Below, piece by piece: positions 14,855 to 17,467 of a DNA stretch of 64,000 nt. The notes under the pieces were generated by a model. The model searched no databases and was not told the origin of the DNA. It worked only from the letters and a program-made list of their open reading frames with translations. Within the stretch, counting starts at the first letter, position 1; each line of letters begins with the position of its first letter. The stretch spans positions 15,326 to 79,325 of the forward strand of contig USES01000002.1 of assembly GCA_900553785.1 (NCBI GenBank). The letters run 5' to 3'. Made by a program: the position numbers and the translations under genes. The DNA is from an uncultured Clostridium sp. (GTDB lineage Bacteria > Bacillota > Clostridia > TANB77 > CAG-465).

Positions 14855-15700
14855 ATGGGAAATATTTATAGGCAAATAAAAACTTATGGGATTTTTGCAA
14901 ATACATTAAAAATTATAGCTCTGGTTGCTATGTTAGTTGACCATATCGCGGTATACTTTTATTGGTATATTCCGGAAACTGTACAGGACGTAATGAGGGG
15001 ATTTGGAAGAATAGCCATGCCTTTGTTTGTATTTTTACTTGTACAAGGATTTTTCAAAACTAAAAACTTTAAGAAATACGTTATAAGAGTAGGAATATGT
15101 GCAGTTATAACTCAAGTACTTATTAGTATACTTGGATATGTAAATGTTAAATTTTATCCGGATTATGCGATTCAAGTTTATACATTTGGTAATATTTTGT
15201 TTTCTTTCGTATTAGCGTTATTATTACTAAAAATAGTACATGAACCAATAATTTTAAGTAAATATACCAAAAAACAGAATATTATAATTAGGATCATATT
15301 AGGTATAGCAATAATGTCTGTATATGTATTTGTAAATATAGACTATGGAGTTACAGTGCCAATTTTGGCTATGCTTTTGTATGCCGTAGAGAGATTTAGA
15401 ATAACGGTGCTTATTACAAAGAGTAAACCTAGCTTTTCTTTTAAGGGGATAGTTATAAATACGGTAGATGAATTAACCATAGATAGAATATATAAAGGGC
15501 TTATAGCACTTTGCATATTGATTGTAATTGTATTTTGTAATGTTAATATATGGGCACTAGCCTCCGTAATTCCAATACTGTTATATAACGGAGAAAAGAA
15601 AAGTCAGAGTAAAAAGCAAAAGATGTTCTATTATGTATTTTTCCCACTACATCACGCATTATTGTATCTATCAGCAATGTTAATTAAAAGTATTATTTAG
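14855..15700 (+). CDS. TraX family membrane protein
   Basis: The N-terminus LKIIALVAMLVDHIA and the polytopic profile are typical of the TraX family. Confidence 0.7.
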   Translation: MGNIYRQIKTYGIFANTLKIIALVAMLVDHIAVYFYWYIPETVQDVMRGFGRIAMPLFVFLLVQGFFKTKNFKKYVIRVGICAVITQVLISILGYVNVKFYPDYAIQVYTFGNILFSFVLALLLLKIVHEPIILSKYTKKQNIIIRIILGIAIMSVYVFVNIDYGVTVPILAMLLYAVERFRITVLITKSKPSFSFKGIVINTVDELTIDRIYKGLIALCILIVIVFCNVNIWALASVIPILLYNGEKKSQSKKQKMFYYVFFPLHHALLYLSAMLIKSII

Positions 15701-15707
15701 AAAATAA

Positions 15708-15749
15708 ATATAATTTAGGAAAGAGGAAGTACCTCTTTTCTTTTTGCAT
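15708..15749 (+). repeat. Direct repeat copy 1 (contains a terminator hairpin)
   Basis: atataatttaggaaagaggaagtacctcttttctttttgcat recurs at 17303-17346. The only difference is two extra T. Confidence 0.9.
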
Positions 15750-15828
15750 TAGTATTAAAAATTGGGAAAATACACTTGAAAAGTGAAAGATTTTGGTATA
15801 AAATGTATAAAAATAAAGGAGAAAACAA

Positions 15829-15885
15829 ATGAGACTAATGGAAAATAATGTAAATGGGGGGGGGGCAAAAAAGCCTTCTAAATAG
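15829..15885 (+). CDS. Candidate 18-codon leader peptide (uORF) containing the G10 tract
   Basis: An aaggag RBS lies 7 nt before the ATG. The peptide is MRLMENNVNGGGAKKPSK. It sits between a putative promoter and a strong terminator, upstream of the gene at 16015. Confidence 0.25.
   Translation: MRLMENNVNGGGAKKPSK
15856..15865 (+). repeat. G10 homopolymer tract
   Basis: Ten consecutive G in an A+T-rich genome, located inside the uORF. Confidence 0.95.
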
Positions 15886-15909
15886 TTATTTTCAAGGACA
15901 AGTTATATT

Positions 15910-15960
15910 GGCCTATGCTTTGCATACGTTAAAATGCGTGTGTAAATCATAGGCCTTTTT
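15910..15960 (+). terminator. Long intrinsic terminator / attenuator in the leader of the gene at 16015
   Basis: ggcctatg-c-tttgcatacg [ttaaaatg] cgtgtgtaaa-t-cataggcc followed by TTTTT. That is 18 paired positions, including two G-U pairs. Confidence 0.65.
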
Positions 15961-16014
15961 GCATGCATTTGTTTTGAAACCTTTATTTAAAAAGAAAGAG
16001 GAGAAATATGAAAA

Positions 16015-17241
16015 ATGAAAAAGAAAAATGCAATATCACTTATTGTACTTGTAATAACCATAATTGTTATGGCAATACTAGCTGCAACAGTAATAATAAC
16101 ATTGTCTAATACAAATATAATAAGCCAGGCAAATGATGCTGTAAAGAAAACAGAAGCACAGCAAGTAGAAGAGATGAAGGCTCTTATGTTAGCAGATGGA
16201 ATGCTAGGGAAAAATCCAGAGTCACAAACAATAGGAAGTACAACACTTGAATGGGATAGTGTAAAAAAAGAAGTAATAGAAAAAAGAAATGGGCAATTAG
16301 TAAAAGAAGGTGTAATCATTCCAACAGATTTTTATTATGTAGGCGGAACAAAAGATACAGGACTAGTAATATCTGATGATTCCACAGATGAAAATAAGGG
16401 TGTAGATTATACATGCGTTGGAAACCAATTTGTATGGATACCAGTAGATGATTTTTCTAAGTTTGTAAGAGGAGAAGCAGAAGAAACATCAACAGGTTCT
16501 GGTATATATAAAATGACAGGTGCGTTAGAGTCCAGATATGCAGAGCCATATACAGATGGATATGCAACAGAAGTGGAAGAGTATAATGCGATGATGCAAT
16601 CAGTACAAAAATATGGTGGCTTTTATATAGCGCGCTTTGAAGCAGGTGATGGTGATGCAACTGCTGCAAGAACAGCACCTACTGTCGCACATAAGGTGGT
16701 AAGTAAAAAGGAATCATATATATATAATTACGTGCCATGGGGAGCTGCTATGAATGATACGTCTGCTACAACTATAGATGGCGTAGCAAATGTATCAGGA
16801 GCGATAGAGCTATCTAAAAATATGTATAAAGGAAGTACATCAGTAGTATCTACATTGTGCTATGGAGTGCAGTGGGATGCAGCACTAAATTATGTATCTG
16901 ATAAGGACCACGATATAGTAAACTCAGGGCCTTGGGGAAACCATTTAATTACTGATGGCTCAGCAGATAGTGTACTTTATACAAGTGGAAAAAATGAGGC
17001 TTGGAAAGCTAAGAATATATATGACTTAGCAGGAAATGTACAAGAATGGACAATGGAAAAAACTGCTTGGGATGATGAAACACATATTCGTCGTATGACA
17101 AGAGGAGGCTCTTATGATATACCTTATTATGCAGAAAATCCTAGTGTAAGGTTTGGAAATACTGTATCAATACTGACAGATAATGGAGTACTTTGTGCAA
17201 TTAGTCAAATCGGTTTTCGTGTTGCGCTTTACATTAAATAA
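16015..17241 (+). CDS. Pilin-like N-terminal anchor fused to an FGE/SUMF1 (formylglycine-generating-enzyme-like) domain
   Basis: The N-terminus MKKKNAISLIVLVITIIVMAILAA resembles a degenerate prepilin leader and helix. The C-terminus has GNVQEWT, RGGSY and GFRVALY, which are typical of the FGE-sulfatase fold. Confidence 0.6.
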   Translation: MKKKNAISLIVLVITIIVMAILAATVIITLSNTNIISQANDAVKKTEAQQVEEMKALMLADGMLGKNPESQTIGSTTLEWDSVKKEVIEKRNGQLVKEGVIIPTDFYYVGGTKDTGLVISDDSTDENKGVDYTCVGNQFVWIPVDDFSKFVRGEAEETSTGSGIYKMTGALESRYAEPYTDGYATEVEEYNAMMQSVQKYGGFYIARFEAGDGDATAARTAPTVAHKVVSKKESYIYNYVPWGAAMNDTSATTIDGVANVSGAIELSKNMYKGSTSVVSTLCYGVQWDAALNYVSDKDHDIVNSGPWGNHLITDGSADSVLYTSGKNEAWKAKNIYDLAGNVQEWTMEKTAWDDETHIRRMTRGGSYDIPYYAENPSVRFGNTVSILTDNGVLCAISQIGFRVALYIK

Positions 17242-17302
17242 TGACAGATTAAAAACATAATCAGGTTGTTATATATTTGTTTAAATCTATTGTTTTAAAT
17301 TT

Positions 17303-17346
17303 ATATAATTTAGGAAAGAGGAAGTACCTCTTTTCTTTTTTTGCAT
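17303..17346 (+). repeat. Direct repeat copy 2 (contains a terminator hairpin)
   Basis: Same sequence as 15708-15749. The stem is aagaggaagtacctctt with a T-run. Confidence 0.9.
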
Positions 17347-17467
17347 AAAATGTATAGAGGGGGATTTTTATGGAAGAAGAAAATGTACAAGAATATGAAG
17401 CTGAAGAAGTAATGAAAAAATCTACAGAAGAGGTAGAGGAAATTTATGAGGAGGATGTATAGATTAT

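Follow-up and report, generated by a model that had tools for sequence, protein, structure and literature searches.

Can the length of a run of guanines within a short leader open reading frame (ORF) decide whether transcription continues into the gene that follows? The question is raised by a locus in a stretch of 64,000 nucleotides (nt; the whole 64-kb stretch is called the window below) from an uncultured Clostridium sp. (assembly GCA_900553785.1, contig USES01000002.1, positions 15,326 to 79,325 of the forward strand), in which a leader ORF containing ten consecutive G precedes a terminator-like hairpin and the gene for a protein of 408 amino acids (aa). A preliminary description of this DNA had proposed phase-variable attenuation, with slipped-strand changes of the G tract switching read-through into the gene on and off. 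Comparison with related loci upholds the switching of the leader ORF by tract length in relatives, while at the window's own locus a single length (G10) is seen. Tract polymorphism among relatives and the tract-driven switching of the leader ORF are well supported by sequence, and the case for a regulatory consequence of this switching in the downstream gene is about evenly balanced.

The leader and its terminator-like hairpin

The leader and the gene behind it comprise the following features.

15776–15804, + strand: promoter-like site of the leader, TTGAAA-17 nt-TAAAAT, sigma-70-like (promoter scan)
15797–15804, + strand: TATAAAAT box within the leader promoter (seven of the eight TATA(A/G)AAT columns invariant in 13 leaders)
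15818–15821, + strand: GGAG ribosome-binding site (RBS) of the leader ORF, 7 nt 5' of the ATG (GGAG columns invariant in 13 leaders)
15829–15885, + strand: leader ORF as sequenced, 18 codons, MRLMENNVNGGGAKKPSK, the short form (sequence; tract-length simulation)
15841–15893, + strand: predicted 5' hairpin P1, which encloses the tract (predicted fold)
15856–15865, + strand: G10 tract, read GGG GGG GGG G(CA), the position of tract-length polymorphism in relatives
15876–15885, + strand: TTCTAAATAG, with stops for both non-long frames (TAA 15879–15881, TAG 15883–15885)
15910–15960, + strand: intrinsic-terminator-like hairpin of 19 pairs, −27.8 kcal/mol, with T5 (predicted fold)
15950–15952, + strand: TAG in the hairpin 3' arm, ending a leader ORF of 40/41 codons if the tract is G9/G12 (simulation; realised in the related loci L046 and L049)
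15965–15989, + strand: post-terminator segment complementary to the leader 5' end (RNAduplex)
16015–17241, + strand: downstream gene, whose 408-aa product has a transmembrane helix at the N-terminus, a long helix and an FGE-sulfatase/C-type-lectin-fold domain

The preliminary description had read an upstream ORF of 18 codons with a good RBS and the G10 tract, and this is correct as read (GGAG at 7 nt spacing), as is its placing of the stop 25 nt before the hairpin and T5. Read directly, the leader ORF starts at ATG 15829–15831 and stops at TAG 15883–15885, and 55 nt separate the terminator from the downstream gene. The hairpin proper (15910–15955, 46 nt) is formed by GGCCTATG.C.TTTGCATACGT and GCGTGTGTAAA.T.CATAGGCC and is followed by T5 at 15956–15960. 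It occupies the position of an intrinsic terminator, 3' of the leader ORF and 5' of the structural gene, and its internal mismatch hides it from a simple terminator scan. A promoter scan from the hairpin to 16015 returned no promoter-like site, so the window's gene probably depends on the leader promoter. A candidate internal promoter inside the hairpin (TTGGCC-16-TAAAAT) was rejected, its −10 element not being conserved in relatives (TAAAAA or ATAAAG). At the gene itself, two ATGs 7 nt apart and in different frames follow the RBS (ATGAAAAATGAAAAAG, window 16008–16017). The first of them opens an out-of-frame ORF of 33 codons, and relatives carry a similar pair 8 nt apart.

Tract length and the frame of the leader ORF

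A homopolymer of about 7 or more G/C is long enough to slip, and the G10 tract is the sole G/C run of at least 7 in the window (30% guanine plus cytosine, GC), where shuffled sequences lead one to expect 0.6 overlapping 7-mers. Similarly, all nine G/C runs of at least 7 in 237 kb of fetched DNA from 31%-GC genomes stand at the leader tract position. By the letters of the sequence, tract length certainly sets the frame of the leader ORF. In simulations, tracts of 7, 10 or 13 G end the ORF at TAG 15883–15885, tracts of 8 or 11 G end it at TAA 15879–15881, and tracts of 9 or 12 G leave 40 or 41 codons open to TAG 15950–15952 in the hairpin 3' arm. The simulation reproduces both earlier predictions, an earlier stop with G11 and an open frame into the terminator 3' arm with G9 or G12.

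Both outcomes occur among related leaders. The long form of the ORF has 37–40 codons and stops inside the hairpin 3' arm, at a TAA in GTGTAAATC or a TAG in CATAGG (33 nt into the hairpin, or at CATAGG). The short form has 16–20 codons and stops within an invariant TCTAAATAR, 25–31 nt 5' of the hairpin. This element ends either of the non-long frames, and the window's TTCTAAATAG, when read in the long frame, gives L-L-N-S. Which class a leader belongs to is determined by the length of its tract region, as listed here by locus.

Long, L003 and L007–16: tract G4TG5
Long, L004: tract TG6
Long, L020–25: tract G5AG3
Long, L034–42: tract GGTGGG
Long, L026: tract G10
Long, L046 and L049: tract G9
Short, window (W): tract G10
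Short, L018: tract G10
Short, L044 = L017: tract G9, then an A-run 2 nt shorter
Short, L019: tract G11
Short, L048: tract G8
Short, L027–32: tract GAG6

Two comparisons show the effect of a single G. At one orthologous locus recovered from different pig samples, L046 and L049 carry G9 and the long form, and L048 has the short form at G8; over 3477 nt the sequences are 99.7% identical, differing by ten mismatches and by two gaps, one in the tract and one in an upstream A-run. The G9 alleles encode a 40-codon ORF, MRTMENNVNGGGQKSLLNSYFQDQTKLAYALHTKKHVCRP, that stops in the hairpin 3' arm, and the G8 allele encodes MRTMENNVNGGGRKAF, which stops at the TAA; these are the products simulated for the window at G9 and G8, so the G9 form predicted earlier exists in relatives. 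In the second comparison, L026 (G10, long) and L019 (G11, short) share the same sequence from tract to hairpin, and their frames differ by one G. Tract length also differs between paralogous leaders (G9, G10 and G11). The preliminary description had suggested comparing tract lengths in related isolates, and lengths of 8, 9, 10 and 11 all occur among the leaders.

Among the frame-blind leaders, those with uninterrupted tracts of at least 8 G are short in the window, L018, L044, L019 and L048 and long in L046, whereas those with interrupted tracts are long in L003, L004 and L034 and short in L027. Such a split would be the expected pattern of a hypermutable tract with 'locked' interrupted alleles. 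In the GAG6 leader of the P0042 gene, one extra G would give the long frame. At the locus of L046, in a fourth sample, from pig (L045), a ten-N scaffold gap at ~990–1000 replaces the G tract and its immediate flanks, and in a fifth (L053) the contig begins a few bases 3' of the tract, which indicates either read-level heterogeneity or poly-G read trimming.

A leader module that accompanies the gene

The unit of promoter, ORF and hairpin is a conserved leader of ~170 nt found directly 5' of all eight family genes examined, namely the window's gene and seven others for which upstream DNA was fetched. The set was complemented by a scan of a metagenome collection for the hairpin sequence, and its sources are uncultured low-GC gut Firmicutes from human and pig gut metagenomes. 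The elements follow a fixed order: the TATA(A/G)AAT box, GGAG, the short ORF with its G-rich tract, a TCTAAATA segment that is invariant across all leaders, and the hairpin with its T-run. An nhmmer profile built from 13 leaders found exactly one leader per locus in 47 loci, always directly 5' of the family gene and on the same strand, and one copy in the window. These loci lie in no fewer than eight distinct chromosomal settings (after TraX, YceG, DNA ligase, YmdB, an S1-domain gene, UDP-glucose pyrophosphorylase, a transglutaminase-like gene and others), so the leader module travels with the gene. Many contigs terminate within the leader, as a dispersed repeat would lead one to expect.

The window matches, letter for letter, a stretch of a 126-kb human gut scaffold, which carries two more paralogs, P0041 and P0051 (loci L043 and L044), each with the same kind of leader; the contig ends within the leader of the third of these three family members. 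In both paralogs beyond the window, the stop codon is followed by ~180 nt of conserved sequence (GAAAGACTGTGAACTGAATTTCCC...), which the window's copy does not have.

A search of positions 15600–16200 against Rfam 15 gave nothing beyond chance-level matches even at an expectation value (E) of ≤10. At the gathering score, the only family matched in the whole window is tmRNA (a tmRNA gene at 49822–50178, − strand), and the leader is unmatched. Viral-contig and phage collections contained no leader matches, so the locus does not appear to be phage-borne, and a contig search with the hairpin 19-mer gave only two chance matches, in 54%-GC genomes. Standard annotation does not reveal the system, since the leader ORFs are too short, or vary too much, to be picked up by gene callers.

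A proposed frame switch at the terminator

These elements could form a switch in which the G run is a slippage-prone repeat and the frame of the leader ORF controls translation-dependent read-through of the terminator into a surface-protein gene; we would give equal weight to this reading and to its denial. Gain or loss of one G would shift the leader ORF between the long frame (37–41 codons) and the two short frames. In the long frame, a ribosome trailing RNA polymerase would block the hairpin and allow read-through into the gene (ON). With a short frame, release of the ribosome 25–31 nt upstream would let the hairpin form, and most transcripts would end at the T-run (OFF or low). P1, which lies ~17 nt 5' of the terminator, could be a pause site at which the ribosome catches up. 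The window's copy, at G10, has a short frame and a predicted-low state, and G9 or G12 would give the long frame. The positions of the stops are consistent with this scheme, in that the long ORF ends in the hairpin 3' arm in relatives and the window's ORF as sequenced ends ahead of the hairpin. The sequences show the anatomy, the conserved module, the polymorphism of the tract and its consequence for the leader ORF; a working terminator, its override by translation, and switching that is both frequent and reversible are what we infer.

Several observations weigh against the switch. The four leaders from the window's organism or its near relatives (the window's own, L018, L044 and L019) are all in the +1 short frame, ending [P/L]SK*, with intact genes, and a frame shared by four leaders looks more like a stable state than a random phase. 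Independent assemblies agree in length (L044 and L017 are both G9); at least ten contigs of the YceG or ligase loci all carry G4TG5, and six P0042 contigs all carry GAG6. Genes behind short leaders are intact, as at P0042, and the P0109 gene occurs without a leader, so the leader is not always needed. The long frame is found in 4 of 10 frame-blind tract configurations, which is not clearly above the chance expectation of 1/3. The hairpin of L046 is followed by a poor T-run (TTCTGTGATT), and tight coupling of transcription and translation is not known to be the rule in Firmicutes. Further, no alternative antiterminator structure was found in the predicted folds. Tested for covariation, the terminator and the G-run stem showed zero double-sided changes and did not differ from the shuffle control, so these structures are supported by conservation and energy and not by covariation.

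Coding, RNA and other explanations

The leader could instead act as RNA only, either through P1 (with the G-run as a stem strand) and a constitutive or factor-controlled terminator, or as a small RNA of ~150 nt; the ORF frame would then be irrelevant and the tract differences tolerated noise. We judge this unlikely. For the leader RNA, the predicted folding energy is −58.2 kcal/mol, which is beyond chance (z = −5.9 against shuffles). Across 14 leaders, 97.7% of cells in the terminator hairpin are standard pairs; nine pairs change on one side alone, eight of these nine never lose pairing, and the apical pair is often unpaired. This constancy of pairing outside the apical pair speaks for the switch. 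P1 is predicted in 12 of the 14 leaders, with an outer stem of GAAAATAAT and GTTATTTTC, in which one apparent compensatory pair was noted by eye only, and an inner stem, with 91.5% of cells paired, between the G-run and GCCUUCU (in most leaders, GCCUUCU or GCUCUCU). In addition, the leader 5' end (15810–15832, including the RBS and ATG) pairs with the post-terminator segment (15965–15989) at −18.2 kcal/mol (RNAduplex; z = −7 against shuffles). This pairing is weaker yet present in most other leaders, and CCTTTATTT recurs 3' of the hairpin in most relatives. In read-through transcripts, it could close the leader and hide the RBS of the leader ORF.

An RNA-only leader is also compatible with short frames being common before intact genes, with a share of long frames not above chance, and with nucleotides that are conserved where frames differ. 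3' of the tract, lineages differ by 1-nt indels, and the hairpin is read as GLCFAY...KTRV in one frame and as LAYALHT... in the window's lineage. Because the same conserved nucleotides are read in different frames, the constraint lies on the RNA hairpin and on an ORF that enters it, and not on the C-terminus of the peptide, which counts in favour of the switch. Besides the hairpin itself, what stays constant is that any ribosome getting beyond TCTAAATAR meets it.

An RNA-only leader does not readily explain the marks of translation. GGAG and an ATG 7–13 nt after it are present in every leader, and the strong GGAG is invariant. Indels between ATG and tract are 12 nt and 6 nt long, both multiples of three, and the tract regions of the long forms likewise differ by multiples of three (lengths 21, 18, 21, 21, 15 and 21 nt). 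Synonymous changes occur in the long frame, from CAA GGA to CAG GGG in L004 and from GGT to GGC in L039, and twelve clusters of the peptide have been deposited by gene callers. The TCTAAATA segment, which supplies stops in both off-frames, does not vary. Finally, Rfam contains no match to the leader, and a lone hairpin makes an unpromising ligand sensor. The leader ORF contains no regulatory codon run except GGG GGG GGG, and no metabolite- or drug-sensing codons or stalling signal were found in it. The idea of an arrest peptide (QGP resembling the RAGP of SecM) was dropped, since the window-type lineage is without the motif.

One-way decay is an improbable account, in which the long ORF (or its peptide) is functional and the window's G10 and the other short forms are fixed inactivating slips in a degenerating leader. 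Relative to the consensus, the window's lineage has further 1-nt and 3-nt indels 3' of the tract, and G9 would not give the consensus peptide; in addition, the same short state is found in independent assemblies (L044 = L017) and the GAG6 short state is common to several loci. Decay is difficult to reconcile with the persistence of uninterrupted G9–G11 runs only at the leader tract in a 31%-GC genome, where quick interruption would be expected without selection. Moreover, a single host population has both a G8 and a G9 allele at one locus, and the window-type G9 long form is realised in L046.

We consider it very improbable that a phase-variable small protein is the true product, with a peptide of ~39 aa itself functional and switched, the hairpin merely its terminator and the 408-aa gene independently expressed. 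The twelve deposited clusters of predicted proteins of 38–50 aa do share the motif M..K.L.NYVNGGG.KSSLNNFQGPNKIGLCFAY.KTRV, and some loci have a hairpin-to-gene spacer of ~200 nt. However, the C-terminal third is read in another frame in the window-type lineage, which leaves no family-wide peptide, and the N-terminus varies freely. The module is, moreover, always joined to the family gene in the same orientation, and in the window the short stretch before the gene contains no promoter-like site.

An assembly or sequencing artefact, with a true window tract of G9 and a homopolymer error adding the extra G, has hardly any likelihood: long G runs are error-prone, and scaffolds and contigs are broken at the tract or close to it (L045, L053), yet the window is identical to a public-collection contig (L001), L018 is independently G10 with the same short ORF, and lengths are reproduced in independent samples (G9 in L046 and L049; G9 in L044 and L017).

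The downstream gene and its family

What would such a frame switch control? The preliminary description had called the gene at 16015 pilin-like, and this label is not borne out. The N-terminus (MKKKNAISLIVLV) has no prepilin motif (N-A in place of G-F, V in place of E at +5), there is no N_methyl match at E ≤ 0.01, and the fold is of the FGE/C-type-lectin kind. A weak Pfam FGE-sulfatase match covers residues 334–404. The AlphaFold model (predicted local distance difference test, pLDDT, 85; predicted template-modelling score, pTM, 0.83) has a transmembrane helix, a long second helix and a globular domain. Its best match in the PDB by Foldseek is Treponema denticola variable protein 1 (2y3c; E 4.6e-5, probability 1.00, template-modelling (TM) scores 0.33/0.45, identity 14%), and further matches are other FGE-type folds.

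The protein has more than 4,400 database relatives, nearly all of them unannotated, from gut metagenomes and several per contig. The family is multi-copy, with at least three paralogs on the 126-kb source contig. With its predicted membrane anchor, its multi-copy family and its modelled resemblance to a variable surface protein of Treponema, the downstream protein is a plausible contingency target. If each paralog has its own G-tract leader, slippage could gate each copy independently and give rise to combinatorial, heritable and reversible surface variation; we hold this extension tentatively, leaning slightly against it.

Individual family members differ in their surroundings. The P0042 gene is identical on 22 contigs, behind the GAG6 short leader. 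In L007 (~2010–2030), a paralog is split into ORFs of 114 aa and 293 aa by an 11-nt deletion relative to L009 and is a plain pseudogene; a second repeat switch at this frameshift was considered and rejected, the cause being the 11-nt deletion. L003, L044 and L046 have an extra hairpin-to-gene spacer of ~110 to 150 nt. In the long spacers, TTGCAT-17-TATACT was noted by eye as a possible second promoter, which is below the scan threshold and a possibility only. The P0109 gene and its spacer occur without the leader in L047, L050, L051 and L052 (~1020–1100), where the end of another gene stands instead (577 aa as called in L047; cut at locus or contig ends elsewhere). These leaderless loci have a hybrid hairpin, GGTCTATGA...TCATAGGCC, whose 3' arm is also found in the leader hairpin; this suggests recombination within the hairpin.

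The window's leader and gene are bracketed by a direct repeat.

15702–15745, + strand: terminator of the upstream TraX gene and first copy of a 44-nt direct repeat
17297–17340, + strand: second copy of the 44-nt repeat, with terminator, 3' of the 408-aa gene

The two copies are 95% identical, lie 1595 nt apart and contain identical terminator hairpins. The cassette of leader and gene may have been inserted at the TraX terminator, or duplicated with it. Between the cassette terminator and an M23 peptidase gene lies a very acidic 30-codon ORF (MEEENVQEYEAEEVMKKSTEEVEEIYEEDV, 17370–17462), which is called as a gene in the public assembly.

Relation to known switches and attenuators

In gut commensals, most known cases of phase variation involve invertible promoters, and repeat-driven switching has been described mostly in Gram-negative pathogens. 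Homopolymeric-tract phase variation includes the poly-G tracts of Campylobacter (PMC8355987), a G(n) tract upstream of Moraxella catarrhalis uspA1 that alters transcription (PMC7302503) and the G-tract switch of Bifidobacterium breve pilus genes (PMC9187656). The leaders described here resemble these systems in having an uninterrupted run of 8–11 G whose length differs between strains and paralogs, in the presence of interrupted ('locked') alleles, and in the location of the tract at the 5' end of genes for multi-copy proteins that are probably surface-exposed. They differ in that the tract lies in a separate leader ORF, and neither in the structural gene nor in a promoter spacer, in that the proposed output is read-through, and in the host, an uncultured low-GC gut Firmicute. 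In the literature searched, we found no report of repeat-driven switching in uncultured low-GC gut Firmicutes and no case of a leader-ORF repeat gating a terminator.

Among ribosome-mediated attenuators, the nearest case is the pyrBI leader of E. coli, in which the leader ORF runs through the attenuator hairpin and the ribosome unwinds the terminator. The long form of the present ORF likewise overlaps the hairpin, so that a translating ribosome would block its folding. In Firmicutes, ribosome-mediated attenuation is reported for the msrD and hflXr leaders (PMC10314930, PMC6310831). With these two and with pyrBI and trp/his-type attenuators, the present leader shares a promoter-proximal short ORF, a strong RBS and a terminator hairpin before the structural gene, and its upstream hairpin P1 could likewise be a pause site. 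It differs in its proposed signal, a heritable frame change in place of a ribosome speed that depends on amino acid, nucleotide or antibiotic; it also differs by its want of regulatory codon runs and, in the folds predicted, of an alternative antiterminator helix.

In Clostridioides difficile, the phase-variable leader terminator of cwpV is made by DNA inversion through a recombinase. The proposed switch would share with cwpV the phase variation of a Firmicute surface protein via premature termination in the 5' leader, but no inverted repeats surround the leader here, and the variable element is a homopolymer and not a site-specific inversion. With Treponema denticola variable protein 1, the 408-aa protein appears to share an FGE-type C-type-lectin fold and membership of a paralogous family; it differs in its N-terminal membrane anchor and long helix, and the TM-scores and sequence identity of this best structural match are low. 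As regards a diversity-generating retroelement, the 64-kb window contains no template repeat (no second copy of any part of 16015–17241); no reverse transcriptase was searched for.

Implications

A practical point is that these leaders break metagenome assemblies, with contigs and scaffolds ending in or at the leader. If the proposed mechanism is true, two known principles, repeat slippage and ribosome-mediated antitermination, would be joined in a way that we have not found described, and a homopolymer switch in a terminator-gating leader ORF would wire the stochastic control of genes in a new way. It would also offer an initial way into a large family of surface proteins, multi-copy and unannotated, in uncultured Firmicutes of the human and pig gut.

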